Shown here piece after piece: positions 10,118 to 28,288 of a stretch of 64,000 bases of DNA. A model generated the notes under the pieces. That model saw nothing but the letters and a program-made list of their open reading frames with translations. It ran no database searches and was not told the DNA's origin. Source of the stretch: Kiritimatiellia bacterium (GTDB taxonomy: Bacteria; Verrucomicrobiota; Kiritimatiellia; RFP12; UBA1067); assembly GCA_017403825.1 (NCBI GenBank), contig JAFRDO010000065.1, forward strand, positions 6,438-70,437, written 5' to 3'. Positions within the stretch are counted from its first letter, which is position 1; each line of letters starts with the position of its first letter. The translations under genes were made by a program, and so were the position numbers.

Positions 10118-10175
10118 CCTCTTGTAGAGTAGAGACCCACGCCTCGGCGTTGCCGCCGGTGCGACTTCCCCCTCA

Positions 10176-10213
<38 letters not shown>

Positions 10214-10379
10214 CCGTAGAGCTGCGTTCGTCATAGCTTGGCTTTTCCTTGATTGGCACTATGGCATATAAGGTTGCAGGCATTATACATCATTCCCGCC
10301 CCTCGCCACAATTATACCAAAGTATAATCGGCAGGCGTTGACACCGCTTTGCACATTTAATATCATATTGAAAACAATC

Positions 10380-12416
10380 ATGTTGAAAATGACGTTACGC
10401 GAAAAGACAAAGCGGATTCTGCTTGCCACGATTTTGGCGGCGGCGACCCCAGCTTTTGCCGTGGGCGCGGACGCAATGGCGTCTTTAAGGCCTAAGGCCG
10501 TGGAACATGTCGGCGACTTCTGCCACACGGGCACCGTCACCATGGTATGCCAGAACCTGGACTTCTCTCTCGCGGAGCGGAATGGGCGTCACCATTTTCT
10601 TGTCGTGCGGAAGCAATTTGGAATTCGCGTCGGCGAAATCATCGTCGCAGCCGGCGAATGCGTCCGCTGCGACAACGGCTCCGTGCTTAAAATAGCACGC
10701 CGCGTTCTTCATCTGGGGCAGGAGTTGCTGCCGTCACCGGAGAAAGTGTCGATCGCCGAACTAACCAAAAAGGATTTCCTATACAAAATGGTGACGACGG
10801 AAGGCACGCTCGTCCTCGCACGACGCGACGAAATAGACACCGCCTACATCCAGATGCTTGTCAAGGACGGCGCGTCCATCGTTAATGCGGCTTTTATGGC
10901 AAGCACCAACCGGACGATTGACGCAATTTCGCTTCTGGGGGCGCGCGTTCGGCTTACCGGGGTCCTGATGCAAGGCTACGGTGCCCGCAGGAACATATCC
11001 AACTATCTCTCTCTCGACCCTCCCGGAGGCTTTGAGGTGGTGACGCCCCCGCCTGCCGACACTTTTAAGGTACCGGAGCTCAACTTAGATTCCCAATATA
11101 CGCCAGAGGAAATCGTGCAAATGGATCCCCGACGCTTCAACGGCGTGGTAATGGCGACCTGGGGCGGCAACCAGCTGATGCTGGCAGGAAAAGGCAGCCG
11201 ATGCGTAAGAGCAACGCTTGCCCGCGACGGCGAACTCCCTGTCGCTGGCGACTATGTGGCCGTCGTCGGCTTCCCGGATACGGATCTCTATGGCATCAAC
11301 CTTGTCTACGCGCAATGCAGGCCTTTGGCGGACGGAAAGGATTTCGGATTCGATCCGAAGCCGGTAGAAGTCACGCTACGGCAACTTCTGACTGACGGAC
11401 ACGGCAGGCCTAGAATCAACGGCTACAGCCACGGACGCCTGCTGCGGCTCAGGGGAACGGTCCTTGACGTGCAGCCGTCGCTTGCCCTATTCTCGATAAA
11501 CGATGACGGGCTGACCTTGCCGGTAGATTGCTCGTCCTCGCCAAACGTCATTCCGCGCCTGGAAGCCAACTCCAGGATAGAGGTCGTCGCTCTCGCCATC
11601 ACGGAAACGGACAGCTGGCGCGAATGCATCGCCTTGCCGCAGACGCGCGGCCTCAGGCTTGTGCTGCGCTCCGCCTCAGACCTCGAGGTATTGGCGTTCC
11701 CGCCATGGTGGACTCCCGCCAGGTTGACGGCGACCGTCATATCCCTTCTCGTGATCATCGTGCTGATCATCGCAGCCAACCGCATCATCAACAGGATAAT
11801 GATGCGCCGCAAGGTGTCCGAGCGTACGCGCCTTGCAGTGGAGCTTCACGACTCGCTGTCCCAGACCCTCGCCGGCGTCGCCTGCCAGATTTCCGCAGGA
11901 CACGATGCCATAGACGATGACCCGAAGTCTGCCAAGGAACTTCTGGGCACGGCCGAACGGATGCTGGAGTCCAGCAGGACCGAGCTCAAGAACTGCCTGT
12001 TCGACCTCAGGAACGACACGGTGGACGACCCGGACTTCACACGGGCCATCTCAAAGACGCTCACCGGGTTCAGGACCGAGGCGAACATCTCGATTCGGTT
12101 CAACGTCGCGCGGTCTCTGCTGACCGACTCGACGGCGCACGCGATTCTCTGCATAGTCAGGGAACTCGTCGCTAACGCCGTCAGGCACGGCGCAGCGACA
12201 CGCATCAGGATCGCAGGCGTCGCCGCCGACAAGCGGCTCCGGTTTTCCGTACACGACAACGGCCGCGGATTCGATACCGAGCGCCGCCCCGGGCCACGCG
12301 AAGGACACTTCGGGTTGGCAAGCATCCGCGAGCGGCTAGCCGACATCAAAGGCTCCTTCAAGATAACATCAAGGGCAGGGGATACCCGCGCCACCGTGAA
12401 CATGACATTGCCATGA
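10380..12416 (+). CDS. Sensor histidine kinase (HisKA_3 + HATPase_c) with a large periplasmic sensor domain
   Basis: ATG at 10380 gives MLKMTLREKTKRILLATILAAATPAFA, a signal peptide. A ~430 aa periplasmic region is followed by a TM segment (ATVISLLVIIVLIIAANRII), the H-box 'RTRLAVELHDSLSQTLAGV' and the ATPase motif 'ELVANAVRHGAA...FSVHDNGRGFD'. Confidence 0.85.
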   Translation: MLKMTLREKTKRILLATILAAATPAFAVGADAMASLRPKAVEHVGDFCHTGTVTMVCQNLDFSLAERNGRHHFLVVRKQFGIRVGEIIVAAGECVRCDNGSVLKIARRVLHLGQELLPSPEKVSIAELTKKDFLYKMVTTEGTLVLARRDEIDTAYIQMLVKDGASIVNAAFMASTNRTIDAISLLGARVRLTGVLMQGYGARRNISNYLSLDPPGGFEVVTPPPADTFKVPELNLDSQYTPEEIVQMDPRRFNGVVMATWGGNQLMLAGKGSRCVRATLARDGELPVAGDYVAVVGFPDTDLYGINLVYAQCRPLADGKDFGFDPKPVEVTLRQLLTDGHGRPRINGYSHGRLLRLRGTVLDVQPSLALFSINDDGLTLPVDCSSSPNVIPRLEANSRIEVVALAITETDSWRECIALPQTRGLRLVLRSASDLEVLAFPPWWTPARLTATVISLLVIIVLIIAANRIINRIMMRRKVSERTRLAVELHDSLSQTLAGVACQISAGHDAIDDDPKSAKELLGTAERMLESSRTELKNCLFDLRNDTVDDPDFTRAISKTLTGFRTEANISIRFNVARSLLTDSTAHAILCIVRELVANAVRHGAATRIRIAGVAADKRLRFSVHDNGRGFDTERRPGPREGHFGLASIRERLADIKGSFKITSRAGDTRATVNMTLP

Positions 12417-13060
12417 ACAAAATCCGCATACTCCTTGCCGACGACCATTCCATAATGCGCGTCGGGCTTGCATCGCTCCTTTCGCGTGAAAAGGACATGA
12501 CCGTCGTGGGAGAGGCCGAAACGGGCGAAGAGGCCGTCGCAAAGGCGCGCGAACTCAAGCCTGACATCGTCGTGATGGACCTCATGATGCCGACACTTTC
12601 AGGTGCCGAAGCCACGCGGCAGATCACATCCAACGCATCGGCGGGAGATTCGGCAGAGGGAGAGACTCTGCCGCGCGTACTCGTATTCACGTCATACGGA
12701 ACGTCCGCTGACCTGGCGGACGCCGTCAAGAACGGCGCTTCGGGGGTCCTGCTAAAGAACGCCCCGACGCGCGACCTTCCGCAAGCGATCCGGAGCGTCT
12801 TTGCGGGCGAGAAGGTGCTTTCAAAGGAGATTACGGCGCTTGTGAACGAAGAATCGTCTACGCCCCATCTCACAGACCGCCAGCTGCTGCAGCTTGAACT
12901 TGCCGCCCGCGGGTTCACCAACCAGGAAATCGCCAACAGGCTGAACGTCTCGCTGATCACGGTCAAGAAACAGTTCTCCGACATCTTCGCACGGCTCAAC
13001 GTCTCAAACAGGTCGGAGGCCATCGGTCTCGCACTGCAACGCCACATCATCAAGATGTAA
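12413..13060 (+). CDS. Response regulator, NarL/FixJ family (REC + LuxR HTH)
   Basis: The start overlaps the kinase stop by 4 nt (ATGA). The REC domain shows 'ILLADDHSIMRVGLASLL ... IVVMDLMMP'. The LuxR HTH shows 'LTDRQLLQLELAARGFTNQEIANRLNVSLITVKKQ'. Confidence 0.9.
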   Translation: MNKIRILLADDHSIMRVGLASLLSREKDMTVVGEAETGEEAVAKARELKPDIVVMDLMMPTLSGAEATRQITSNASAGDSAEGETLPRVLVFTSYGTSADLADAVKNGASGVLLKNAPTRDLPQAIRSVFAGEKVLSKEITALVNEESSTPHLTDRQLLQLELAARGFTNQEIANRLNVSLITVKKQFSDIFARLNVSNRSEAIGLALQRHIIKM

Positions 13061-13399
13061 GAGGCATCCGGGGTCAGTCCCTGAAAATCTCCTCATGCAG
13101 CTTGACAGGAGTCCCCCACGAATCTACTGCCGGTTGAATTACGCGAAGCATGAACCGAAGCGGAAATGCACCGAAGAACGCGAAGCGTTCGAAGGGGAGA
13201 TTCGGCAAAGCCGAACCCGAATGGCGCGCAAGCGTCTGCGCGGAGGTCTTTTGCCATCCTCGGAGTTCCTTCAAAAACGCGATAACCGCTCAAAACAGCG
13301 CATTTCTCAGCCAAAAACCACAACGCCATTGGGGTGGCTCCCCAATTTTCCCAATTTTCTCGTGGGAGGTTAAGTCGTCGCCGGAGTCGGATTTAGCAG

Positions 13400-13840
13400 T
13401 TAAGTTTCGCCGCTGCCATCGTCATCTTCGTAGATAAAGCAACTCTTGAGAAGGAACTGTGCCTCTGGATCGTCGTCGGAAAACAACTTCACAATCGGAT
13501 TGTTGAAAAACACGAAATAAAAATCGTCGTTGCCCCAGTCTTCTTTGTCGCCGAGTTCGTCGACGTCGCCGGATTCTGCCCGCGAAATCATGCAGTAGTC
13601 GCAGGCGTCACCCAAAGAGAGGTTCCTGTATCTAGGCAAAAGCCCAAGGTTGTGGAAGAGCTTGTTGCAGGTACGCTCAACAAGCCCCCTGTCGTTAGAA
13701 CCTTTTATCAGGAAGTGGAACCCAAAAGGATTCTGGGCGGACTTTTTGCAGCCACCGAAATCTGCAATGCCGTTGCTTTTGAACAGATAGTCAACATAGT
13801 CAATCAGGGACTTGTCTGCCGCACGTGTCGGTTTTCTCAT
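13400..13840 (-). CDS. Hypothetical protein (146 aa, acidic C-terminus); low-GC foreign operon
   Basis: ATG at 13840 overlaps the upstream stop (ATGA coupling). MRKPTRAADKSLIDYVDYLFKSNG...FYFVFFNNPIVKLF...EDDDGSGET. I recognise no domain. Local GC is well below the window mean. Confidence 0.45.
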   Translation of the reverse strand: MRKPTRAADKSLIDYVDYLFKSNGIADFGGCKKSAQNPFGFHFLIKGSNDRGLVERTCNKLFHNLGLLPRYRNLSLGDACDYCMISRAESGDVDELGDKEDWGNDDFYFVFFNNPIVKLFSDDDPEAQFLLKSCFIYEDDDGSGET

Positions 13841-14061
13841 GTTCGCTGTCTCCTTTTCTCCGCCTCTCTCGCAAGACGCATCTCGTGCAGCCTCATGCTT
13901 GCCGCACGCTTCTCTTCCCATGTCATCGGATATTTCTCTATCGTCTCTATCAGAGCCTCCTCCAATCCAGGCGTCCTGTAAGGACTGGGAGCCCCGCCTT
14001 CTGCGGAGGGCCCCCTCAGTCTCTCAATCATCTCCTTGCTTAACTTGCTTGCCATCTTCAA
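13837..14061 (-). CDS. Hypothetical small helical, charged protein (74 aa)
   Basis: MKMASKLSKEMIERLRGPSAEGG...MTWEEKRAASMRLHEMRLAREAEKRRQRT. Its stop overlaps the start of the downstream gene. It shares the low-GC operon. Confidence 0.4.
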   Translation of the reverse strand: MKMASKLSKEMIERLRGPSAEGGAPSPYRTPGLEEALIETIEKYPMTWEEKRAASMRLHEMRLAREAEKRRQRT

Positions 14062-14091
14062 ACCTCCAGACTTAACCCTCTATTCTTTCTG

Positions 14092-14826
14092 TCACCTAAT
14101 TCTCCGCCCTAATACAATTGCATACAAATCTGGATTGAAGTCATCTGGCAGTTCTTCTATTGTTACGAACCGTCCGTCCTTCATGGCGGGGAAGGTTCTG
14201 TCCTCGTCATCACGAGCAAGCAGAATGTCTTTAACTTCCCAGGTCATCTGCTCGGGGCGTCCGCCAAGGGGATTAGAATAGCCCAACTGAAGACAGACGG
14301 TTGAAACAGGCTTGCCAGTGCCAAACAACTTATCGCAGTAATACTGGTTCAACGTCCTATATTCTCTTGTCTTCTCCCCTGACTCAATCATGCGGTAGTA
14401 GACTTTCTTCATAACCATAAATGCGCGGGTTGAAGCAGGTACTGTATTCAGTGGCGTCGGGAGTTCTGGTCTGCCGCCATATCTCAATGCCATCGCACGA
14501 TTCTTATCTCTACGATATCCCAAATTGGCGGCAGGTATATCTGGGTGTATGAAAGACCATTCATACATATTATCTAAATTCCTGCCAAAGAAACAGAGGT
14601 CTGCCTCCTTGACATTGAAGTCTCTGACAAGCATCTTAGTGACCTTAGGGTCTACCTGCTTTATCCTCATTCCTTTTGCTTCAATAAGAAGTGCTATGTC
14701 CCAAGTGTCTTCATCATCTATACGAATAGACGCTCGGTTTGGGTCTATGCCAAATGCTGACATTTTAGACTTTATCCGCTCCAAGAGCACCTGACAGGTG
14801 GCTTCTGTAAGTTTCTGCAGTTTCAT
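14092..14826 (-). CDS. ASCH (PUA-like) domain protein with an uncharacterised N-terminal half
   Basis: ATG at 14826 is preceded by AAGGAAGGAGC. The C-terminal 'RAFMVMKKVYYRMIESGEKTREYRTLNQYY...VCLQLGY...MTWEVKDILL' fits the ASCH consensus (K..yf..I.sGkKT.E.R). The N-terminal 120 aa are not recognised. The gene is low-GC. Confidence 0.5.
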   Translation of the reverse strand: MKLQKLTEATCQVLLERIKSKMSAFGIDPNRASIRIDDEDTWDIALLIEAKGMRIKQVDPKVTKMLVRDFNVKEADLCFFGRNLDNMYEWSFIHPDIPAANLGYRRDKNRAMALRYGGRPELPTPLNTVPASTRAFMVMKKVYYRMIESGEKTREYRTLNQYYCDKLFGTGKPVSTVCLQLGYSNPLGGRPEQMTWEVKDILLARDDEDRTFPAMKDGRFVTIEELPDDFNPDLYAIVLGRRIR

Positions 14827-14840
14827 ATGGACATTGCTCC

Positions 14841-14896
14841 TTCCTTGGTTTTCACTATATATTACCATGTACCGCCGATTTCTGACAGGCAAAAAC
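14841..14896. repeat. Left copy of an imperfect ~56 bp direct repeat (42/56 identical to 23212..23267)
   Basis: tccttggttttCACTATATaTTACCAtgtaccgccgatTTCTGACAggcaaaaacg versus tccttgtcttcCACTATATgTTACCAcacccaaccgttTTCTGACAagcaactacg. Both copies are in the same orientation and they bracket an ~8.4 kb module. Confidence 0.7.
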
Positions 14897-14955
14897 GATT
14901 TTTAAGCTCGCACTGCCGCATTACGGTCCGAAGCGTTCCTTGGCAAAGGGGCTGT

Positions 14956-17900
14956 CTATCCGGCGCTACAGACATGATCGATCGAGACAATCACGCCGTC
15001 ATTGTCACAATCAGGCGCGGCAACGGCGATCTTTTCGCCAAGGCTCTGCTCAAGGGACGTCAAATAGCCACCCAGCGCCGGAAGCCCCCGCCGCCCCTGC
15101 TTGATTATTTCCCGCAAGACATGGTCTGGCAGCGTGCCGCGATTCTGAAGGTCGCTCAGGAGTTTCTGGGCGAACTCGCGCTTTACTCCGTTCGCCGCAG
15201 CCTCCATCAGGATCGGGCGCGCCTTGTTCGCCAACGACTGCGCCCCCTCCGTGCGCTTCACTTCATGGACCGGGACTTCGCTCGCCAGTTTCTCGTACCT
15301 GTCCCAGAACCCTTCCGAAAAGCTTTCCAGGCGCGGCTGGTCAAACGGGCATGTCACCTCAGGCAACGCATCCTTCATCAGACGATAGACCGGCGCCTTG
15401 TCTTCTGCGCCCATGAACGCCGCGAACAACGTCAGCCCCTTGCGCGTGAACAGGTGCGTGCCGGCTCTCGGCCCCGTCGTTGCCGTCTTCACCCGGTTCG
15501 GCAGCCGCTCGATCCGCTTCACCACCTCAGGGTGCTTCTGCTCGATCTCCGCCCACTTTACCTTGCATTCCGTCAGGAACGTCGCCCTCTCGGAATCCTC
15601 GGGATTCGTCCCCAGCCGCTCGAACAGCCCCGCCGCCTCCAGCGATTCGTCCGCATCGAATATCCGCGCGTCCTCTCCGACCGTCTTGTGGATCATCAGT
15701 ACCTTGTTCTTTGCGATCGTCCTGATGTTGTAGTGCTGCGCTCCCTGGTCCGTCGGGAAGTAGTTGTACAGATATAGGTCGTTGAACACCTTCACGCCGA
15801 TGCGGTTGATGCGTCCCAGGCGCTGGATCACGCGCGTGGGGTTCCACGGTATGTCGTAGTTGATGACCAGGCCCGCCCGGTTCAGGTTGTATCCCTCGCT
15901 CATCTTGTCCGTGGCGATCATCACGTCGTAATCGTCTCGCTTCGCCGCCTTTTCAACAGTCCCGTCGAAGTTGCGCCGAATCAGGCGGCTCGCGTCCTTC
16001 GACAGCGACCGCACCGTGCAGACGCGCCCCGGGAAAGCCTGCTCCAGGTATGCCGTCACATGTTCCACCGTGTCGGCGAACTCGCTGAATATCAGCACCT
16101 TCCGTTTCGGCTCGCCCCTCCTCGTCGCCAGGTTCGCCTTGCCTTTCAGGACCTTCCGGACGATGGTCACAAGCTGCCTTGCCTTGGGGTCGTTCGCAAT
16201 AAGGTCCAGCTTCTCCACCTCGCGCCGCACGCGCCTGAAGAGCGCAATGTCGCTTTTCACGTCCTTGATGAACGCATCGTACCCTTCTTTCGAGAAATCC
16301 TCCTCCACACGGTATATCTGCTTGTTCACGGCCTCCACGGAGACGGCAGCCTCATAATCCGAAAGCATCGTCTCGAAGATCTCGTCCCCGAGCGTGGCGT
16401 CGCAGAACTTCTCCATCATCACGCGGTCGAGTATGATGATGCCGCGGTGCCCGTCGCCAGGGTTTCCCGTCGGCTTGATGGCGAGCTTCAGCACCATCTC
16501 GTGGATTTCGATCAGGTTGCCGATAGTCTTCGCGAACGCGCCGAAGGAACTCTCGAACCGATGGACGAGCAGCCGCCTGATGAACTTGTACATGTTCTCC
16601 TGCTGCGTCTTCAGCGTTTCGCGATCTTCATCGTCATCATTCGCGATGCTTGCGTAAAGCCCCGGACGGTAGATTGCGCCCTTGAAGTTTCCGCGCGGTC
16701 CGAAGTATTTGTCGATCACCCGGTCGTAAAACTCGCTCTGCTCGCGGTCGAGTTTGTAGAACTGCTCGATCGGCGGGTGGACGGTCGGCAGGTTCTTGCC
16801 GATTTCCGCACGGTACTGGGGGTCAAGCCGCAGGTCGATCCGGTTGCGCCGTATCATGACCGGCTCGATGATGGCACGGATGCTTGAGGCTGTCTGCTCC
16901 AGAATGGCGTGCGCAAACTTCTTTGCGGCGGCAACGTCAAGCGGTTCGTCGTCCGCCCCCGCGAATCCGAGCTTACGCAGCCGGTTGCGGACATAGCGCT
17001 CCAGGTTTCCGCTGTCGTCCGGACTGGCCAAGCCGACGTTCTTCAGCACGTAGTCGCAGTCGTCATAGGCACTCTGGAACTCCGCGAACCGCGCATACAG
17101 GTCGCCGTCAGGCGCGAGTTTGCTCTTCTTCGGCACCGTGAACAGCTTCAGCAGCGAGTATATGTCGCTCGGCCTGTTCCCGAACGGCGTGGCCGTCATC
17201 AGCACCACCTTCTTGCCCCGGCAGATGCGCCAGAGGTAGTCGTAGTCTATCGACCCCTCGTTGCGGAAGTAGTGCGCCTCGTCGACCAGCACCACGTCGA
17301 TGTCGGGGTGCGTCTGCACATACCGCTCCACCTCGTCCATCTTCCCCCGGCTCATCGCCCGCCAGCCGTACATGTTGAAGTCATCCAAATAGCCGCACCA
17401 GCCCGTCTTCTCGGTTTCGCTGCCGACAAGCCCCGGCGGAGCCACCACGATTCCCCGCCGCACGTCCATCACGCACCCGAGAACGCTCCCGATCACCGAC
17501 TTCCCCAAGCCCACGACGTCCGCGATGATGATGCCATTGTATTCGTTGAGAATGGACAGCGCCTGGTTGACGGCGTCCTTCTGGAACATGAGCGGACGGT
17601 ATTTCGGTTCGCCGGTGAAAGGGTCGCGCGGAATCGCAAAGGCCCGGTCGATCTTCGGCGTCTCGTCGACGAGCGCACGGTGTTCGAGATAGTTCTTCAG
17701 GACGATCGCATAGGCCTCGTAGGGCGTAACCTCCGCATGGACGCCCTCGTCCTTGACCGTCCTGCGGATCTTCTCGGCCATTCCCGCAAAGTCCGTGATC
17801 TCCTCGGCTTCCGCCCACTGCGCCTCAAAGTATTCCTTCGCATCGCGCCCGCCGAAGTTCGACAGCTCCACGTTGAACTCGTTCTGGCTGTTCAGTCCGG

Positions 17901-18384
17901 GGAACGTGAGGTTGCTCGACCCAGTGATCCAGCGTATCGGCTCGATCACCCGCAGCTGTTCGTTCATCTCGAAGACATAGAGCTTGGCGTGGTTCGGCTC
18001 TTTCGTCTTCCTGATTGCAAGCCGCCCCTCTTCCATCATCTTGAGAAACGTCTCCATAGACTGCGCGCATCTCTCCCGGTCGAAGAGCCGCGACCTCGCG
18101 CTGTTGCGCAGCGAATTGAGGAACTGTTCCTGCGCAGTCGCACCGTCCCCTGCGCGAGCCAGCTCGTAGCCCATCTTGTCAACGTCCAGTCCCACAAGGA
18201 TACGAAGTTTCAAACTCGTGTTCTCGGAAATCGGTCCCATCAACGGCGGAATGCCGTTAAAGTAGAAGTAGCCCGAAAGGACGGACAGCGTCTCCGTCAC
18301 GGGAATCAAGTCCCGCAGCCGTGCGCTCATGCTCGCCGGCTCGGCCGGCTGCTCGTTGACATTGTTCTTGTTTGTTATGAACAT
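14956..18384 (-). CDS. Fusion protein: N-terminal PLD-family (HKD) nuclease domain + SNF2/SF2 helicase (DEAH) + helicase C-terminal domain
   Basis: ATG at 18384 with AGGAGAAAG upstream. HKD motif 'NHAKLYVFEMNE...ITGSSNLT'. Walker A/motif I 'IIADVVGLGKSVIG'. Motif II 'VVLVDEAHYFRN'. Helicase-C 'MIATDKMSEGYNLNRAGLVINYDIPWNPTRVIQRLGRINRIG'. Confidence 0.85.
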   Translation of the reverse strand: MFITNKNNVNEQPAEPASMSARLRDLIPVTETLSVLSGYFYFNGIPPLMGPISENTSLKLRILVGLDVDKMGYELARAGDGATAQEQFLNSLRNSARSRLFDRERCAQSMETFLKMMEEGRLAIRKTKEPNHAKLYVFEMNEQLRVIEPIRWITGSSNLTFPGLNSQNEFNVELSNFGGRDAKEYFEAQWAEAEEITDFAGMAEKIRRTVKDEGVHAEVTPYEAYAIVLKNYLEHRALVDETPKIDRAFAIPRDPFTGEPKYRPLMFQKDAVNQALSILNEYNGIIIADVVGLGKSVIGSVLGCVMDVRRGIVVAPPGLVGSETEKTGWCGYLDDFNMYGWRAMSRGKMDEVERYVQTHPDIDVVLVDEAHYFRNEGSIDYDYLWRICRGKKVVLMTATPFGNRPSDIYSLLKLFTVPKKSKLAPDGDLYARFAEFQSAYDDCDYVLKNVGLASPDDSGNLERYVRNRLRKLGFAGADDEPLDVAAAKKFAHAILEQTASSIRAIIEPVMIRRNRIDLRLDPQYRAEIGKNLPTVHPPIEQFYKLDREQSEFYDRVIDKYFGPRGNFKGAIYRPGLYASIANDDDEDRETLKTQQENMYKFIRRLLVHRFESSFGAFAKTIGNLIEIHEMVLKLAIKPTGNPGDGHRGIIILDRVMMEKFCDATLGDEIFETMLSDYEAAVSVEAVNKQIYRVEEDFSKEGYDAFIKDVKSDIALFRRVRREVEKLDLIANDPKARQLVTIVRKVLKGKANLATRRGEPKRKVLIFSEFADTVEHVTAYLEQAFPGRVCTVRSLSKDASRLIRRNFDGTVEKAAKRDDYDVMIATDKMSEGYNLNRAGLVINYDIPWNPTRVIQRLGRINRIGVKVFNDLYLYNYFPTDQGAQHYNIRTIAKNKVLMIHKTVGEDARIFDADESLEAAGLFERLGTNPEDSERATFLTECKVKWAEIEQKHPEVVKRIERLPNRVKTATTGPRAGTHLFTRKGLTLFAAFMGAEDKAPVYRLMKDALPEVTCPFDQPRLESFSEGFWDRYEKLASEVPVHEVKRTEGAQSLANKARPILMEAAANGVKREFAQKLLSDLQNRGTLPDHVLREIIKQGRRGLPALGGYLTSLEQSLGEKIAVAAPDCDNDGVIVSIDHVCSAG

Positions 18385-18404: not shown

Positions 18405-18433
18405 TTGACACGATGCCGTACATGATGTATTAT
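18405..18433 (+). promoter_or_regulatory. Sigma-70-type promoter for the vapBC operon (TTGACA, 17 nt spacer, TATTAT), likely giving a leaderless transcript
   Basis: TTGACA at 18405-18410. The 17 nt spacer is cgatgccgtacatgatg. TATTAT at 18428-18433. The antitoxin ATG lies only ~8 nt downstream at 18441. Confidence 0.55.
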
Positions 18434-18440
18434 ATTGCAC

Positions 18441-18698
18441 ATGAAAACTTTGGTAACAAAAGTGACTGAGCGTGGTCAAGTCTCGATTCCCGCCTCGATT
18501 CGCGAGTCCATGCAGATGATACCTGGAACGACCCTGTTGTGGAATCGCGGACAAGATAACTACACATGCGTGATAACGATTGTTCGCAAGCAACAGCGTA
18601 AAGGGGCAAAGGCCATGCTCGGCTACGCCTCCACATTCCGCAAACCGCGTACGACAGCGGAATGGATGGCAGAGATTCGCGAAGGAGAAGAGCGGTGA
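18441..18698 (+). CDS. vapB: AbrB/MazE/SpoVT-type antitoxin (VapB-like)
   Basis: MKTLVTKVTERGQVSIPASIRESMQM... carries the swapped-hairpin 'RGQVtIPa.iR' motif. Its stop overlaps the region just before the PIN gene start. Confidence 0.75.
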   Translation: MKTLVTKVTERGQVSIPASIRESMQMIPGTTLLWNRGQDNYTCVITIVRKQQRKGAKAMLGYASTFRKPRTTAEWMAEIREGEER

Positions 18699-18700
18699 GC

Positions 18701-19105
18701 ATGGTAGTGGATACGTGCGTCATACTCGACGTGCTTGATCGCGACCCCGTCTTCGGCGCCGCTTCGGCGGAAGCAATCGACAGGTACGCAGAGGGCGGGC
18801 TTCTCATTTCACCACTCACATACGTTGAACTCGCTCCTGCTTTCCTCGGTGATGAAACGCGAGAACGCGATTTTCTCTTTGAAATCGGAATAGACCTCCC
18901 GCCGACCTTCGGGGAGGACGATCTTTCGCTTGCACACGCCGCCTGGAACAACCATATCCAGCGCAAGCGTTCAGGCAAAGTCGCCAAACGCCCCGTCGCA
19001 GACGTGATGATAGGCGCGCTCGCACAGGCCACCAATGGACTCATCACACGCAATGCAGACGATTTCCGAGCACTCTTCCCGACTCTCAACATAGTCACTC
19101 CTTGA
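18701..19105 (+). CDS. vapC: PIN-domain toxin (VapC-like)
   Basis: ATG at 18701. MVVDTCVILDVLDRDP... has the conserved N-terminal Asp of PIN domains, and ...LITRNADDFRALFP is a typical VapC C-terminus. It lies immediately after vapB. Confidence 0.8.
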   Translation: MVVDTCVILDVLDRDPVFGAASAEAIDRYAEGGLLISPLTYVELAPAFLGDETRERDFLFEIGIDLPPTFGEDDLSLAHAAWNNHIQRKRSGKVAKRPVADVMIGALAQATNGLITRNADDFRALFPTLNIVTP

Positions 19106-19111
19106 CTTACC

Positions 19112-22100
19112 TTAGAATTCCTCTTCGAACTTCGGAGTCCGTTTTTTCTTTTGGGAGCCCTGCACGCGGGAGGGGCGCGATTTGCCGAGGGTGGTGCTAT
19201 CAGCAGCATTATGGGGAGGAGTGGAGAGAGGACTGCCTTCGATGACGGCGATTTCGTCTTTGGAGAGTCCGTAGAGGGTATAGACGAGGGCGTCGATTTC
19301 GCGCTCCAGGGCTGAGGTGTCGGCAGAGGGGTTGCGGCGCTTGGCGGAGAGAATGCGGTCAACGAGGGCGATCATTTGTGCCTGTTGCTTTGGAGAAGCA
19401 AAAGGAAAAACTGGTAAAGCATCTACCTCATAGCCGTTCACATTGGAGTTTGTACTAAACTTTGAAAAATAAAAATTCATGAGCCGACTGTTCAAAACAC
19501 CTAACAGAACACGAGCCTTTTTACCACCAATAGGAATATAGTTAGCCGAATTCGCACAATACACGCCCCGTGCCAGAGTCGCTTTGATGCGCCACTTCTC
19601 ATTTACACCAGTGATTCCCTGTAAAACTATCCGCTCACTATCCCGCAGCTTATGCATCGCCTCAAGATCTTTCAGTTTTTTCTCGTTTACAAAAAGATGT
19701 TCGCCCTGACTCATTATCGTCGGCAACGAGTACCGCGCAATGCCTGCCCCTCTTAACATTTTGGGGAACTTAGAGTTTTTAGAAAATGCTTCTCTGGCAA
19801 AGGTCATGTCCAATTCGCCTGTCGCACATCTACTTACAGTAGTCAGCCTTTGCGCCGCACCACGCACCTTGAAAAGCACACGATAGTCTATCTCCCCCGC
19901 TATTGGAAGACGTCCATATTCGGGATCAAGTTCAATCAATGATTTGCACGGCAAATGAAATGACTCACCATCATAATCAACATAACTATCAGTATTGATT
20001 CTTAACACCATGTCACCTTGTGGCCTTGCATTTAGGGCCAAAAAAATGCAGACGGACATTTTTGCAGCTTCAAACACTCGTTTAGCGGGATTGTCTCGTT
20101 CTGGGAATGCATCAAAAGATATTGCTTGATAATTTGAAAACACATATTTTCGCAACGACGCCGCACTTAAATCTCCTGCAAAAGCTAAAGGAAAAATCTC
20201 TGAAAACACACCTGCATCAGATAGCAATTTAAGACTTTTCTGAATAAATAGACGATAGATATTTATAGTTCCACGGCCTCTTGCCTCCGAGAACTCTGGC
20301 GAATTTTTATAATAGGACATCGTGTCTTCATCGACAACAATCGCCACGCCCTTGTTTTGCCGCTTATTTACCAATCCATACGGCGGGTTGCCGATGACAA
20401 TATCAAAGCCGTCCTTGACGTTGAACATCCATTCGGGGTCGAAGAACTCGGCATGGACGTTCTGGTTGTATGGGTCCCATGAGGCCATCAGCCGTGTCGA
20501 TTCCTCCGAATAGCCTACCTTCTTCGCCGCGACGGCAAGGCGCTTGCGAAGCCTCTTGTCCTCATGGCGGAGTTCGTTCTTCTCCTGCCGCGTCTTCGCA
20601 AGGAAATGCCTGTGCCGCACGTCCCAGAGCGCATCCTTCGTCTCCTGTATGTCGCCCGTCTCGAAGAACAGGTCTCGCTGCGCCTCCTTCTCCAGTCCGA
20701 TGAGCGAATTCGCCGCGACGAATTTCGTCTCAAGGTTCGGCAACGTGTTTATGCCGTAGTTCGGCTTCGTCTTGTCGGGCTTTTGCTCGCAGACGAGCGA
20801 GATGAACATGCGGAGTTTGGAAATCTGCACCGCTATCTCCTGAATGTCAGAGCCGAAGATGCAGTTCTCTATGAGGCTCAGTTTGAGTCCGTAGAGATTG
20901 GCGTCCTCGGGTAGCCCCTTCAGGATTCGCAGGAGTTCGGTCATTTTCAGCAGTTCCCCCATCGGGAATGCACCAGAGCCGCAGGCAGGGTCAAGAATCT
21001 TCGCCGCCTCAACTGCCGCGACAAGCCGTGCGCAAATGGCATCGTCGGACGGGCGAATGCCGTCCGCGACAAGCGCACGGACGGTCGCCTCGTCTGCCTT
21101 TGCCTTTTCTGTGAGATAGACGACAAGCGATTCGTCAACCATGTAGTTTACGATTTCGCGGGGCGTGTAGAATGAGCCCGTTGAATTCCGCACGACCACC
21201 TCAGTCTCGGGATTGTATGCACCCAGCAGGTTCTCGAACACCTTGCCGAGCAGTTCTGGGTCAAGCGCAACGTCCTCGTCGCCAGGCGAATTCTCCTCAA
21301 CCGTGAAATTGTATCGCTTGAGGAGAGGAATGATGCCGTAGTCTGGGTCAAAGAAAAGGTCGTTCGGCACGTGCGCCCATGTGAGCGTGCCGAGGTCGCG
21401 ATGATGTTCCTGCAACGAAAACCCGTCATAGTACATGACCTTGCCGTCGTCGCCCTCTTGGTCAAGGCACTCGAAGAGCCCGCCGTTCAGGAACGGAATC
21501 GGACGGAAGAGGTCAAGGACCGCCTCCTTTGAAATCGCAAACTCATCGGCATAGCGGTATGTTGTCTTGACGCCATGATGCCGCGACATCGCCTTCCCGC
21601 CTGCCTTCCGCCCACTCGGCGCGTCCGCAAATTTCCTGTCGCCGATTTCGGAGTTGAGAGTGGCAAAGAACAGGTTCTGGAGGATTGCGCGATAGTACTG
21701 GTGCTGCTTGCGTCCGACAGGATTGAAGTCCTTGAGAATTTTCCGCAGATAGTTCTCATCGAAGAGTTCGGCAGGCACAAGCCCCTTCTGCTTCAGGAAC
21801 CACACGAACATGAGGCGAGTGATAAGCCGCAGGAGATGCTTGCGGTTCTTGTCCTCGCGGTTGTCTGCGTCGGTGTCAAGCCCGTTCGGGTATTCGACGC
21901 GCCTGTCGTCGCAGGCACGCTCGTACCACGCAAAGAGCAGGTTGTAGAACTCCTTGGTGAGCTTCTCGACCGAAAATGCCTCCTTGATGCCTTTCAGCGT
22001 GCTCCAGCTCATGCACATGCGCTGGACGAACGTTGCATTGGCGTCGGGGTCGTTCGTCACATAGAAACTCTGGCGGCGGGCCTTGCTCCAGTTGAACTTC

Positions 22101-22510
22101 CCGTTCTCGGGGGTGGCGGTGACGAGGCTCACGCGGAAACGTCCCTTCGCATCGTGGAACACGAACACCCCTTGGGCGATCACGCCGTCGAGTTCCATCG
22201 GCGGCGTCGCGGCAAAATGCTCCAGCACCTTCTTCGCCAGCTTGAACTGACGGATACGGCTGGAGCGCTCGGTAAGGGCGGCGGAGAGCGGCACGTCTGC
22301 CACGAGGAGCGGAGCCGTAAGGCCGTTCTCGCCAGGGAGGTCCCTGACCACGCCCAGAACACTGACCTTCTCGTCGCTGACCGCCCGAAAGAAGTAATCC
22401 CGTCCCACCGACACAAATGCCGCAGGGGCACAGGCCAACTTCAAGATTCGCACGAAACCATCTGCCGTATAGTCCCCGATCAGTTCCCGAACCGCCTCTT
22501 TCGACACCAT
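19112..22510 (-). CDS. Large gamma-class N6-adenine DNA methyltransferase of Type IIG / Eco57I / BREX-PglX type (~1130 aa) with a C-terminal target-recognition region. No recognisable endonuclease domain.
   Basis: ATG at 22510; the track start at 22522 is TTG. Motif I 'ILDPACGSGAFPMGEL'. Motif IV 'DIVIGNPPYGLV'. The C-terminal ~430 aa (coordinates ~19112-20400) are markedly lower in GC (~43%) than the N-terminal part (~58%). Confidence 0.8.
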   Translation of the reverse strand: MVSKEAVRELIGDYTADGFVRILKLACAPAAFVSVGRDYFFRAVSDEKVSVLGVVRDLPGENGLTAPLLVADVPLSAALTERSSRIRQFKLAKKVLEHFAATPPMELDGVIAQGVFVFHDAKGRFRVSLVTATPENGKFNWSKARRQSFYVTNDPDANATFVQRMCMSWSTLKGIKEAFSVEKLTKEFYNLLFAWYERACDDRRVEYPNGLDTDADNREDKNRKHLLRLITRLMFVWFLKQKGLVPAELFDENYLRKILKDFNPVGRKQHQYYRAILQNLFFATLNSEIGDRKFADAPSGRKAGGKAMSRHHGVKTTYRYADEFAISKEAVLDLFRPIPFLNGGLFECLDQEGDDGKVMYYDGFSLQEHHRDLGTLTWAHVPNDLFFDPDYGIIPLLKRYNFTVEENSPGDEDVALDPELLGKVFENLLGAYNPETEVVVRNSTGSFYTPREIVNYMVDESLVVYLTEKAKADEATVRALVADGIRPSDDAICARLVAAVEAAKILDPACGSGAFPMGELLKMTELLRILKGLPEDANLYGLKLSLIENCIFGSDIQEIAVQISKLRMFISLVCEQKPDKTKPNYGINTLPNLETKFVAANSLIGLEKEAQRDLFFETGDIQETKDALWDVRHRHFLAKTRQEKNELRHEDKRLRKRLAVAAKKVGYSEESTRLMASWDPYNQNVHAEFFDPEWMFNVKDGFDIVIGNPPYGLVNKRQNKGVAIVVDEDTMSYYKNSPEFSEARGRGTINIYRLFIQKSLKLLSDAGVFSEIFPLAFAGDLSAASLRKYVFSNYQAISFDAFPERDNPAKRVFEAAKMSVCIFLALNARPQGDMVLRINTDSYVDYDGESFHLPCKSLIELDPEYGRLPIAGEIDYRVLFKVRGAAQRLTTVSRCATGELDMTFAREAFSKNSKFPKMLRGAGIARYSLPTIMSQGEHLFVNEKKLKDLEAMHKLRDSERIVLQGITGVNEKWRIKATLARGVYCANSANYIPIGGKKARVLLGVLNSRLMNFYFSKFSTNSNVNGYEVDALPVFPFASPKQQAQMIALVDRILSAKRRNPSADTSALEREIDALVYTLYGLSKDEIAVIEGSPLSTPPHNAADSTTLGKSRPSRVQGSQKKKRTPKFEEEF

Positions 22511-23211
22511 CTTGTCCACCAATTCCCGTCCGCGCTACCAAGTTTGACCCGCCGTGCCGCGCAGACAGAAAAAAGAAACGCGGCGTGCCTTCAGTCCAAT
22601 ATCCCGATTGAGGCACGACCAAGCGCCTTGTAGTGAATACGGAAAGAAAGCACGTCGCGTGTGCAACGCACACGCGACGCACCCCGCTTATCTCGCTCAC
22701 TACTTGAATGTTTGGTCGTTTTCAATCAGAGCTCGATACGCAAGTTGCGTAGCGTGACCTCCTTTGCGCTTTCCACCTTCGCGCGAGGCTACTGTGGACG
22801 AATTGCGCTACGGAGGTCGTGCCGGGTTCCTTTTGGGATTTCCCGGCTCCTCGTTCCGCCGTTCATTGCCGACACGGCATCTGCGAGGTTCTGCCAGTTG
22901 CGTCGCTTGCGCGGCGCTTCGGGCCGATGGCGGGCGTTGAATGCCACCCGCCGATGTCAAAGATCACCTGTCCCCCATTCAAGGAACAGCACAATTATAT
23001 CATAAAAAAAGTGGCTAGTGGGTAGGCGAAAAATGGCGGACGTGTCGTCTCCGCCTGTGGGTGAAATCCTAAGCCGATGAGCGCTGAAACACAGAGCCTC
23101 CATGACAAACAGCTCTTGGCGGCACGCTCCGACCACGTTCACCACGGCAAGTGGAGGTCCTCCTTGCTTCCGTTAGCCGCACATCCTGAATGAAAGTCGT
23201 TGTCTTCCCCT

Positions 23212-27866: not shown

Positions 27867-27891
27867 TATACTTTATTTTACCGCAAGCGAT

Positions 27892-27967
27892 GGGGAAGTA
27901 GCTCAGTTGGTAGAGCATCACGTTCGCAACGTGGGGGTCGGGAGTTCGAATCTCCTCTTCTCCACCA
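27892..27967 (+). tRNA. tRNA-Ala (anticodon CGC), with encoded CCA
   Basis: GGGGAAGTAGCTCAGTTGGTAGAGCATCACGTTCGCAACGTGGGGGTCGGGAGTTCGAATCTCCTCTTCTCCACCA. The acceptor stem has the G3:U70 alanine identity pair. The anticodon loop is TTCGCAA (CGC). The T-arm is GGGAG/TTCGAAT/CTCCT. Confidence 0.85.
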
Positions 27968-27975
27968 TCGCAAAA

Positions 27976-28025
27976 GTGCATTTCGCCCAATAAAATCAAA
28001 GGTGAAATGCATTTTGTGTTTTATT
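27976..28025 (+). terminator. Rho-independent terminator after the tRNA
   Basis: The stem TGCATTTCGCC / GGTGAAATGCA (one mismatch) with loop caataaaatcaaa is followed by TTTTGTGTTTTATT. Confidence 0.7.
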
Positions 28026-28144
28026 GATCCGTCGTTGACTCTTGCCGTCTCTTTACTTTCCTTCCCAATGTGACAAGGGGGCAATTCCGGGGGCAAGGAT
28101 CGAACCTCCCACCGTGAGAGAATCGGCTTCTGCGCAAAAGGATC

Positions 28145-28268
28145 AAAAAATGTGCGCGACGAGGTTTGATTTCGGTCGAAAAATGTGCAGATGAAGGCAG
28201 ACTTTCGGTTGAAAAATGTGCAGATGAAGGCAGACTTTCGGTTGAAAAATGTGCAAGAGAAATGATAT
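28145..28268. repeat. Tandem 33-bp direct repeats (two perfect copies, one degenerate, one truncated) overlapping the promoter of the downstream ATPase gene
   Basis: The unit is GAAAAATGTGCAGATGAAGGCAGACTTTCGGTT, at 28178-28210 and 28211-28243. The degenerate copy at 28145-28177 is aaaaaatgtgcgcgacgaggtttgatttcggtc. The truncated copy at 28244-28268 runs into GATATAAT (-10), then GGAGG, then ATG at 28289. There are no spacers, so this is not CRISPR. Confidence 0.75.
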
Positions 28269-28288
28269 AATTTGCGCAGGAGGTCACT

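Follow-up and report, generated by a model that had tools for sequence, protein, structure and literature searches.

The three-gene cassette g1-g2-g3 at positions 13400 to 14826, three minus-strand open reading frames on the 3' margin of a restriction-type island carried by a gut Kiritimatiellia bacterium, is best read as phage-derived, with the ASCH protein g1 modulating or sensing in DNA-modification and restriction biology. We assign this reading a probability of about 0.4. It draws on the mostly phage membership of the rare g1 family and on the presence of DNA methyltransferase genes beside family members in each of about three independent contexts. To judge by its distribution, the cassette itself is not a conserved triad.

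Organization and composition of the cassette

Positions refer to the window, the whole 64,000-nt stretch of DNA that was analyzed. As the first-pass annotation had claimed, three same-strand reading frames are present between 13400 and 14826. g1 (14092 to 14826, minus strand) encodes 244 amino acids from an ATG start, a call based on the open reading frame and on a ribosome-binding site, GGAAGGAG, located 10 nt before the ATG. g2 (13837 to 14055, minus strand) encodes 72 amino acids from its ATG; the 74 amino acids reported earlier are obtained if a TTG at 14061 is used. g3 (13400 to 13840, minus strand) encodes 146 amino acids. When genes were called independently on nine metagenome contigs from this species, the lengths of 244, 72 and 146 amino acids were obtained again. 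Translational coupling, proposed for all three genes, was supported for g2 and g3, whose stop and start overlap as ATGA, but not for g1 and g2, which are separated by 36 nt and of which g2 has its own GGAGG site.

The GC content of the triad was 48.1% versus 59.6% for the window, in agreement with the claimed drop below a background of about 60%. Among segments of the same size the standard deviation of GC content was 3.8%, and 1.3% of these segments were as low as the triad. The local values of 35 to 45% given previously fit the lowest stretches alone, where minima of 38 to 44% were found over 100 to 200 nt. GC3 was 0.48 in g1 versus 0.825 in the adjacent helicase gene.

The spacer between the helicase gene and g1 (14827 to 14955, minus strand; 129 nt) is AT-rich and may hold a promoter of the cassette's own, and 128 of its 129 nt were the same across strains. 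No terminator-like site was found between the helicase gene and g1. By eye, the spacer contains a weak -35/-10-like pair (CTGTCA and TAATAT, 18 nt apart).

The 3' boundary of the cassette was placed at 13385 to 13399 (unstranded). Homology to a variant cassette on contig L083 stops at 13385, 15 nt past the g3 stop, GC content increases there, and the last 87 nt of the variant contig are unrelated to the window. Neither meaningful repeats nor att-like sites were detected on the flanks of the cassette, an integrase, att repeats and further phage genes were missing from its vicinity, and no Rfam family was found in or near it. An empty insertion site, probed with the flanking response regulator, could not be defined; the nearest regulator genomes were Kiritimatiellia MAGs (79 to 82% amino acid identity), in which synteny was lost or the contig ended right past the regulator.

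The neighboring restriction island

The gene adjacent to the cassette encodes an HKD/PLD and SNF2 helicase (14956 to 18384, minus strand; 1142 amino acids; Pfam Helicase_C, SNF2-rel_dom and PLDc_2). The protein matched the PADLOC model HKD+Snf2 (E 5.6e-30), and partial NCBIfam matches to a PLD anti-phage protein and to DrmD fell below cutoffs. The island also contains an Eco57I-family Type IIG-like adenine methyltransferase (19112 to 22522, minus strand; Pfam Eco57I, N6_Mtase and TaqI_C; PADLOC REase_MTase_IIG, E 7e-60) and, on the opposite strand, a VapBC-like pair. The description of the triad as foreign in composition and abutting a defense module was accurate.

By contrast, the claim of a foreign signature common to the triad and the island was not sustained. 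Since the helicase gene is host-like in composition (60% GC, GC3 0.83), triad and island do not carry one common signature, and low GC content in the island was found in the target-recognition segment of the methyltransferase alone. This segment was swapped between strains that share 99% identity elsewhere, which would be a setting in which restriction alleviation is useful. Because the composition of the cassette differs from that of the helicase gene, the cassette is a later addition and may function independently.

Predicted domains and conserved motif of g1

When compared with Pfam (even at E ≤ 10), NCBIfam and PADLOC, g1 gave no match. The AF2 model of the protein (pLDDT 89.9) contains two domains, and its C-terminal half is predicted to be a divergent ASCH-like (PUA-like) domain (residues ~131 to 244; 14092 to 14436, minus strand). 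In the model, which has the elements E134-139, H141-149, E154-158, H161-168, E176-181, E193-204 and E234-243, a beta-barrel has helix alpha1 inserted after beta1 and ahead of beta2, as in the five/six-stranded barrel of the ASCH fold. The top Foldseek match in the PDB was the ASCH protein 3iuw (probability 1.0, E 9e-3, TM to target 0.63), and matches in BFVD included many phage ASCH, DUF3850 and "activating signal cointegrator" proteins with probabilities of ~1 (best E 1.8e-6). The best BFVD match is labeled "restriction alleviation protein," an automatic annotation that may apply to another part of that protein. Among PHROGs, g1 matched phrog_625 alone (E 4.5e-7), a group of unknown function. 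The DUF3850 model (PF12961) gave no sequence match to g1, the likeness being at the level of fold alone, and the g1-family profile found only a designed ferredoxin among PDB sequences (E 0.02).

A GxKxxExR motif (14356 to 14379, minus strand; G150-E-K152-T-R-E155-Y-R157) was located between helix alpha1 and strand beta2. G150, K152, E155 and R157 were invariant in 23 sequences; across 52 family members E155 was invariant, and G150, K152 and R157 were each conserved in at least 90%. A GxKxxExR motif at the alpha1-beta2 position is a cavity-lining hallmark of ASCH domains (PMC6803910). A single g1 relative (P0019; 1 of 52) matched Pfam, with a score of 20.7 bits on PF04266, where the cutoff is 21.2. 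The proposed C-terminal ASCH domain, with an N-terminal half of no known family, was thus borne out by structure and motif and not by Pfam.

Compared with the ASCH superfamily (PF04266, PUA-like clan; human ASC-1/TRIP4, EOLA1, Zymomonas ZmASCH, E. coli YqfB and Enterococcus EF 3iuw), the C-terminal domain of g1 has the same barrel and alpha1 placement, with the pocket motif in the same place. However, g1 falls below Pfam detection, carries an extra N-terminal domain of ~120 amino acids peculiar to it, and is found in the context of DNA methyltransferases and not of RNA metabolism. The catalytic Lys, Thr and Glu of YqfB are K21, T24 and E74. Alignment by hhalign to an approximate YqfB sequence (pairwise E 0.022) paired K152 with K21, E155 with T24 and R157 with R26, and left the E74 equivalent unaligned; the Thr24 position of YqfB is Glu in g1.

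The N-terminal domain (residues ~1 to 118; 14473 to 14826, minus strand) has an alpha-beta-beta-alpha-beta-beta-alpha order without a known family (DSSP of the model: H8-24, E32-38, E43-49, H55-70, E78-82, E87-93 and H99-115). L14, W42, G81, W90, F92 and P95 were invariant in the closer relatives. Fold matches were weak (E 0.05 to 0.5) and comprised RNAP subunit L/Rpb3-11, uL23, YajQ, permuted S6 and I-DmoI. A LAGLIDADG homing-endonuclease fold was rejected for this domain: the topology is similar, but a LAGLIDADG motif and an invariant acidic residue are both lacking, and the I-DmoI match had an E value of 0.15.

Distribution and gene contexts of the g1 family

The g1 family is rare, with 51 matches among 1.84e9 representatives, and a single clade of rumen and gut (jumbo) phages supplies most members. 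The phage link claimed for ASCH proteins therefore holds for g1, whose relatives are phage proteins. A copy of g1 with 96% identity had the same neighbors. For g1 and g3, a k-mer-indexed search across 5.8e9 proteins retrieved copies from the same species alone. tblastn of g1 against GenBank phages returned nothing significant, no close relatives of g1 were found in IMG/VR, and a scan of GTDB species representatives found none.

The phage genes form a block with the order p347, DUF932, ParB-like, p231, the g1-like gene, a basic protein of ~105 amino acids and a giant C5 methylase. More than 10 contigs have this block, among them contigs of 194 to 252 kb and one with a 13-tRNA array; in contig L080 a non-homologous HTH_17 protein replaces the ~105-amino-acid protein between the g1-like gene and the methylase. 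The g1-like gene opens the block with the methylase after a gap of 500 to 700 nt, and the phage loci are 38 to 51% GC. The other bacterial copy (P0004) lies directly 3' of hsdR-hsdM-hsdS (Type I R-M), in an island of 46 to 53% GC in a host of 68% GC. About three independent contexts were therefore recovered, 3/3 beside DNA methyltransferase genes, although the phage contexts represent one related clade and ~3 independent associations are too few for statistics. From this adjacency we infer that g1 takes part in DNA-modification or restriction biology. The chemistry of the adjacent enzymes varies with context, being C5-cytosine in phages and N6-adenine in bacteria. Because these enzymes make different modifications, a base-specific reader role for g1 is unlikely, and g1 differs in this respect (m5C versus m6A) from PUA modified-base readers.

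Combinations of ParB-like, DUF3850 (PUA-like) and DNA methyltransferase domains recur in phages, "perhaps in anti-defense" (PMC12704722). Phage DUF3850/ASCH and ParB fusions likewise place small PUA-like domains in early or anti-defense regions with ParB-like and methyltransferase functions (PMC12704722). Unlike the ParB-DUF3850 and ParB-methyltransferase fusions of prophages (PMC12704722), the three functions lie here in separate genes, and g1 has no sequence-level DUF3850 match. BapA, an ASCH-like protein, acts on modified DNA bases in defense (bioRxiv 10.64898/2026.02.25.707755). With the 5hmC DNA glycosylase BapA and the EVE/SRA/YTH-nuclease fusions (Type IV), g1 has in common a PUA-like pocket fold and a defense or restriction setting, but no recognizable nuclease or glycosylase residues are fused or adjacent to it. 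Lambda Ral and Rac-prophage Lar are small phage-borne R-M modulators encoded near modification functions, and the best BFVD match of g1 is so labeled, but g1 has no sequence similarity to either.

The idea of a triad recurring in other genomes did not hold up. g1 alone has a wider family, and g2 and g3 were limited to the species and one variant cassette. The triad was found beside the HKD-SNF2 helicase gene in same-species contigs alone, and the other g1 relatives adjoin a phage C5 methylase or Type I R-M genes and never an HKD-SNF2 gene. g2 and g3 are missing from all other contexts of g1, so the triad does not have to work as a single system.

Properties and strain variation of g2 and g3

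g2 is basic (pI 9.6) and helical. One identical copy and others of 61 to 63% identity, and no more, were found in the k-mer-indexed search of 5.8e9 proteins. The N-terminal 21 amino acids were invariant and the center had diverged; as judged by these sequences, g2 evolves fast. A borderline likeness to a segment of GlnRS was detected (E 0.0016).

g3 has a basic N-terminal half (pI 9.86) and an acidic C-terminal half (pI 4.05), as stated in the first-pass annotation, with a pI of 4.6 for the whole protein. Its net charge of about -9 is confined to the C-terminal half, and a CxxC is present at residues 80 to 83. The single-sequence AF2 model of g3 (pLDDT 54) was uninterpretable, and its BFVD matches were not significant.

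The statement that g2 and g3 match nothing was upheld in Pfam, NCBIfam, PADLOC and PHROGs, and none of the three cassette proteins matched a family among the PADLOC-DB 2.0 defense models at E ≤ 0.1. Profile comparison detected no relationship of g2 or g3 to the g1 family, nor of g2 to the ~105-amino-acid phage protein 3' of the g1-like gene. No g3 homologues were found beyond the species and the variant cassette, including by tblastn against GenBank phages and plasmids and among close relatives in IMG/VR. The variant cassette, 81% identical and carried on contig L083, was the sole other source of g2 and g3 outside the species. Both proteins are thus orphans restricted to the lineage. A possible likeness of g3 to SUKH-type immunity proteins was set aside for want of Pfam support. 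A DNA-mimic assignment of the Ocr or ArdA type was likewise rejected, the acidity being in the C-terminal half alone and family homology being absent. As a candidate Type II toxin-antitoxin pair, g2 and g3 are overlapping small genes of opposite charge but matched no toxin or antitoxin family in Pfam, NCBIfam, PADLOC or PHROGs.

The triad was intact in 9/9 contigs of the same species; an apparently split g1 in one contig (L088) was a scaffold gap of Ns. Relative to the variant cassette, g3 (92.5% nucleotide identity) showed 22 synonymous and 7 non-synonymous codon changes, a pattern indicating that it is under purifying selection. Between strains, the nucleotide difference was 2.9% in g1 versus 0.23% in the helicase gene (~12-fold).

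Proposed role of g1 and alternative explanations

Under the reading that we favor, the triad was horizontally acquired from a phage and lies at the 3' edge of the Type IIG-like methyltransferase/VapBC-like/HKD-SNF2 island. g1 would be a nucleic-acid- or nucleotide-binding protein whose ASCH pocket, with GxKxxExR intact, is predicted to accommodate a DNA or RNA base or nucleotide, and whose N-terminal domain may mediate oligomerization or partner binding. Most likely, g1 would act as a modulator or sensor and hold down restriction of the DNA of its own carrier (restriction alleviation or modification control). Phages would use the g1-like protein together with their own methylase, and bacteria would use g1 beside R-M genes whose specificity domains get swapped. 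The coupled g2-g3 pair may act as partners or regulators of g1. We infer ligand binding by g1, the link to restriction and the direction of that link, alleviation as opposed to defense.

Most characterized ASCH members act on RNA or free nucleosides and not on DNA, which counts against the proposal. Characterized ASCH proteins work on RNA or free ac4C, and g1 could be a comparable RNA- or nucleoside-directed enzyme or binder, for example an N4-acetylcytidine amidohydrolase of the YqfB/EOLA1 type or a single-stranded RNA nuclease of the ZmASCH type. The cassette would then be unrelated cargo that a phage brought in, placed beside restriction genes by chance because islands are insertion hot spots. 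Consistent with this, the motif Lys of g1 aligns with a Lys of the YqfB catalytic region (approximate YqfB sequence), the cassette is unlike the helicase gene in composition and possibly has its own promoter, and defense islands gather unrelated mobile genes. However, where YqfB has Thr24 g1 has Glu, a residue shared with ASCH proteins that are not amidohydrolases, the phage g1-like gene stands first in a methylase block after its 500- to 700-nt gap, and the three independent contexts all directly adjoin DNA methyltransferase genes. We regard such a role as somewhat unlikely.

It is unlikely that the cassette is an anti-restriction set that a phage or another mobile element left behind, in which g1, the acidic g3 or both inhibit restriction enzymes as a remnant or as domesticated self-protection. 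The family is mostly phage-borne, its DUF932/ParB-like/methylase surroundings are of the kind where early anti-restriction genes typically lie, and the best BFVD match of g1 carries a restriction alleviation label. The strongly acidic C-terminal half of g3 (pI 4.05) also fits, and the fast evolution of g2 and the ~12-fold g1/helicase divergence are compatible with arms-race genes. Against this, an integrase, att repeats and other phage genes were not found nearby, and g3 is acidic in one half alone, has an unreliable model and does not resemble Ocr, ArdA or any other mimic. Further, the cassette is kept in all nine species contigs beside an apparently intact restriction system.

An independent small defense module, with g2-g3 as a toxin-antitoxin or abortive-infection pair and g1 as its nucleic-acid sensor, would suit two small, oppositely charged proteins encoded with a 4-nt overlap, in an island that already holds a VapBC-like pair; PUA-like sensor domains are also found in defense proteins. 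We nevertheless consider it very unlikely, as no toxin-antitoxin or defense family matched the triad (Pfam, PADLOC, NCBIfam and PHROGs), no nuclease or other effector motif was recognizable, and g2 and g3 are never beside g1 elsewhere. A decaying, functionless remnant of foreign DNA, suggested by the foreign composition, the two orphan genes and the lack of a detectable function, is highly improbable given that all three reading frames are intact in every contig, that synonymous changes in g3 outnumber non-synonymous ones (22 versus 7) and that the g1 ASCH motif is fully intact.

A broader form of the favored reading, in which g1 modulates or senses in restriction biology, is quite doubtful. 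It holds that g1-type proteins, with their novel N-terminal domain and ASCH pocket, are an unrecognized class of dedicated methyltransferase and R-M partners in jumbo phages and bacterial islands that tune restriction, with g2 and g3 as lineage-specific adaptors. These proteins would sense the nucleic-acid or modification state; in bacteria they would alleviate restriction while specificity is switched, and in infection they would protect methylated phage DNA. On the same account, the fast-evolving g2, which at its N terminus bears a borderline likeness to the acceptor-binding segment of GlnRS, would be one such adaptor.

Implications

If the methyltransferase link is false, the cassette would be ordinary phage-derived cargo and orphan genes gathering at the edge of a defense island. 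If it is true, it would give a function to an unannotated ASCH-like family of phages and bacteria that is recorded solely as a PHROG of unknown function, and restriction-modification biology would gain a new accessory factor. This factor could account for the survival of hosts whose methyltransferase specificity domains are exchanged, or for the way in which giant phages that encode huge C5 methylases handle their modified DNA.

Organization and composition of the cassette

Three minus-strand genes, termed g1, g2 and g3, occupy positions 13400-14826. The first, g1 (14826..14092), encodes a 244-aa ASCH-like protein from an ATG start with GGAAGGAG upstream. After a gap of 36 nt, g2 (14055..13837) encodes a 72-aa protein from an ATG preceded by GGAGG; an alternative TTG start two codons upstream gives a 74-aa reading. 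The g2 stop and the start of g3 (13840..13400, 146 aa) overlap as ATGA. Thus, the translational coupling ascribed to all three genes by the first-pass annotation applies to g2 and g3, but not to g1. For this species, 9 independent metagenome contigs yielded the same three gene calls. An apparent split of g1 in contig L088 was due to a run of Ns in the scaffold.

The GC content of the triad was 48.1%, compared with 59.6% for the window, with local minima of 38-44%; only 1.3% of equal-sized windows were as low. The low-GC three-gene set originally described on the minus strand is present, as judged by its ORFs and composition, with two corrections needed. GC3 was 0.48 in g1 and 0.62 in g2 and g3, as compared with 0.825 in the adjacent helicase gene, and the foreign composition proposed for the neighboring island does not extend to this helicase. 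Compositionally, the triad is a foreign cassette attached to a restriction-type island.

The flanking island and its variation between strains

Upstream of the triad, the minus strand encodes an Eco57I-family Type IIG-like adenine methyltransferase of ~1130 aa (22522..19112) and a 1142-aa HKD/PLD and SNF2 helicase (18384..14956), with matches to Pfam Helicase_C, SNF2-rel_dom and PLDc_2 and to PADLOC 'HKD+Snf2' (E 5.6e-30). The restriction island also contains a VapBC-like pair, encoded between these two genes on the plus strand (18435-19105): the antitoxin is of AbrB/SpoVT type (87 aa, ERGQVSIPASIRE) and the toxin (134-147 aa) has a PIN domain; a 310-aa minus-strand ORF at this pair (18430-19362) is probably spurious. 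The helicase stop is separated from g1 by a 129-nt AT-rich spacer, identical at 128 of 129 positions between strains, in which no terminator-like hairpin was found. Downstream of g3 is a convergent two-component system, composed of a histidine kinase (10338-12416) and a LuxR-type regulator (12413-13060). The nearest genomes, gut and rumen Kiritimatiellia MAGs, encoded regulators of 79-82% identity, and an identical g2 in NCBI is an annotated protein of a Kiritimatiellae MAG.

Comparison of the window with contig L001 revealed a segment of ~1.27 kb in the C-terminal part of the methyltransferase (19109-20375; GC 38-50%) that was unalignable, with flanks 99% identical downstream (from 19108) and 80% identical upstream (20376-20823, methyltransferase body). 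At the sequence level, this looks like a target-recognition domain swap that would have changed methyltransferase/restriction specificity between strains. Between the same two strains, g1 (14092-14826; L001 5875-6609) differed at 2.9% of bases, with 10 synonymous and 10 non-synonymous codons, while the helicase differed at 0.23%. Such a local excess of divergence, ~12-fold, suggests that g1 has recombined with a variant cassette or has evolved faster.

Elsewhere in the window, positions 10124-10212 on the minus strand matched the domain V/VI region of the Rfam group II intron model (RF00029; 51.4 bits versus a gathering threshold of 40). The match lies at the 5' end of a 952-aa GH106-like ORF (7376-10234), and its surroundings showed no evident intron-encoded protein. 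A third low-GC patch (~50%; 27800-28700) adjoins tRNA-Ala(CGC) (27892-27967) and contains a 33-nt tandem repeat of 2.6 copies (28170-28255), followed by an ATPase-like gene (28289-29626) and two small genes. This patch may be an integration hot spot.

g1 encodes a divergent ASCH-fold protein

Scans of g1 against Pfam, NCBIfam and PADLOC gave no match, and in PHROGs residues 138-185 matched phrog_625, of unknown function. Relatives are rare: HMMER, run in full against 1.84 billion representatives, recovered only 51, of which ~20 were full-length proteins with 28-39% identity. In the family alignment, I147, G150, K152, E155, R157 and G182 were invariant and Y183 nearly so, forming a G-x-K-x-x-E-x-R motif. 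GxKxxExR is the published hallmark of ASCH proteins, in which it occupies the alpha1-beta2 part of the pocket (PMC6803910).

An AlphaFold2 model built from this alignment (pLDDT 89.9) predicted an alpha-beta-beta-alpha-beta-beta-alpha domain (residues 1-118), a Pro-rich linker, and a beta-barrel (residues 131-244) whose first two strands are separated by a helix. The motif falls exactly between helix 141-149 and strand 154-158. The top PDB fold match was the ASCH protein 3iuw (probability 1.0, E 9e-3), and the BFVD matches were phage proteins labeled ASCH, 'activating signal cointegrator' or DUF3850; the best of these (E 1.8e-6) carries the automatic annotation 'restriction alleviation protein'. 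One g1 relative scored 20.7 bits against PF04266, with a cutoff of 21.2, and hhalign placed the g1 motif onto that of E. coli YqfB. Collectively, these data support, in fold and motif, the C-terminal ASCH domain reported in the first-pass annotation, and g1 as modeled is a divergent ASCH-fold protein, below the Pfam threshold for membership.

The N-terminal domain gave weak, non-specific fold matches to RNAP subunit L/Rpb3-11, uL23, YajQ, permuted S6 and I-DmoI (E 0.05-0.5), and no catalytic-looking invariant residues were found in it in the family alignment. A 187-aa metagenomic relative, P0018, has a C-terminal 96 residues 45% identical to the g1 ASCH-like domain and an N-terminus matching RNA polymerase alpha/Rpb3-Rpb11 dimerization and insert domains (Pfam E ~6e-11), to which the weak RNAP subunit matches of g1 point as well. 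P0018 represents a genuine fusion or else a chimeric assembly.

Relatives of g1 adjoin DNA methyltransferase genes

To place the g1 relatives in their genomic contexts, contigs from metagenomes, IMG/VR and NCBI were inspected. Phage contexts were found on >10 contigs, up to 194-252 kb, all from one related clade of rumen/gut phages with Terminase_3, YqaJ and SAM-synthetase genes near the g1-like gene. The block order is p347, DUF932, a ParB-like gene (phrog_1033, E 1.7e-4), p231, a gap of 500-700 nt and the g1-like gene, followed by a basic ~105-aa protein (L002, L006, L013 and L080) and a giant C5 DNA methylase (870-1153 aa, sometimes with an intein). The basic protein had no homology to the ~104-aa proteins that take its place in L081, nor to the HTH_17 (Pfam) protein that adjoins it in L080. 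Hint/intein and LAGLIDADG-type interruptions of the methylase were observed in some phages (L010, 8829-12290; L080, 9495-12581). The 194-kb contig containing L081 also carries an array of 13 tRNA genes, with an IS605 OrfB/TnpB-like gene directly after the methylase.

On a bacterial chromosome, the 449-aa relative P0004, with a second ASCH-like repeat, lies directly after hsdR-hsdM-hsdS and a 139-aa orphan. After it comes a radical-SAM protein, for which PADLOC gave a weak viperin-like match (E 1e-4). This island, at 46-53% GC versus 68% for its host, may be an uncharacterized defense cluster; it also holds a 313-aa orphan and two 76-aa proteins (L075/L076/L077, e.g., L075 1805-11929). With the phage clade counted once, DNA methyltransferase genes adjoin the g1 family in all three independent contexts.

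g2 and g3 are a lineage-specific pair

The loci of g1 relatives, whether phage or bacterial, encoded no g2- or g3-like protein, and the triad is not conserved as a co-occurring unit. Large-scale searches recovered only same-species copies and one variant cassette (L083/L084), 81% identical in nucleotide sequence over window positions 14193..13385. The variant g3 shares 95% protein identity, with 22 synonymous versus 7 non-synonymous codon changes, which indicates that g3 is a genuine protein under purifying selection. In the variant g2, the first 21 residues are kept and the center is heavily diverged (47/75 aligned positions identical). Homology ends 15 nt past the g3 stop, marking the 3' edge of a cassette that can occupy another flank.

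The single-sequence model of g3 was unreliable (pLDDT 54) and had no significant fold matches. No relation was found between g2 or g3 and the g1 family, or between g2 and the phage ~105-aa protein. A g2 profile (13837-14055) matched only glutaminyl-tRNA synthetases in the PDB (best 2hz7_A residues 163-199, borderline at E 0.0016; weaker, E. coli and P. aeruginosa GlnRS 118-181), with the common pattern LS.E.I.RLRG....G.PSPYRD....E..L. This likeness may be fortuitous; alternatively, g2 may be a piece of the acceptor-binding insertion that was captured, or may mimic one.

Proposed role of the cassette

The family to which g1 belongs is rare and found mostly in phages; its ASCH pocket is intact and its genes are syntenic with DNA methyltransferases. 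We infer that g1 would bind a base or nucleotide of nucleic acid and act in modification/restriction biology, and favor a modulator or sensor that would temper restriction of its carrier's own DNA. Such a role would suit phages beside their own methylase and bacteria beside R-M genes exchanging specificity segments, the latter suggested by the segment that is unalignable between strains. ParB-like, DUF3850 (PUA-like) and DNA methyltransferase domains are recurrently joined by phages, possibly for anti-defense (PMC12704722), and the ASCH-like protein BapA is reported to act in defense as a 5hmC DNA glycosylase (bioRxiv 10.64898/2026.02.25.707755).

Against this link, the independent contexts number only three, the chemistry of the adjacent methylases is not uniform (m5C versus m6A), and g2 and g3 are tied to g1 by position only. 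The targets of characterized ASCH proteins are mostly RNA or nucleosides, which also counts against a DNA-modification link; that the cassette is unrelated RNA-directed cargo is doubtful, though it carries some weight. An anti-restriction remnant, which the best BFVD label would recall, is rather improbable, and a TA/Abi module is more improbable still. As a set, the triad matches no known system. Its ORFs are intact and g3 is under purifying selection; the cassette is thus being maintained and is unlikely to be a dead remnant.

In structure g1 is an ASCH/PUA-like protein, and it is predicted to act like one; it stands apart by its N-domain and methyltransferase-linked context, and falls outside the curated Pfam ASCH family by score. 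The triad is a testable lead on an unannotated phage/defense-island family, rather than a demonstrated new mechanism.
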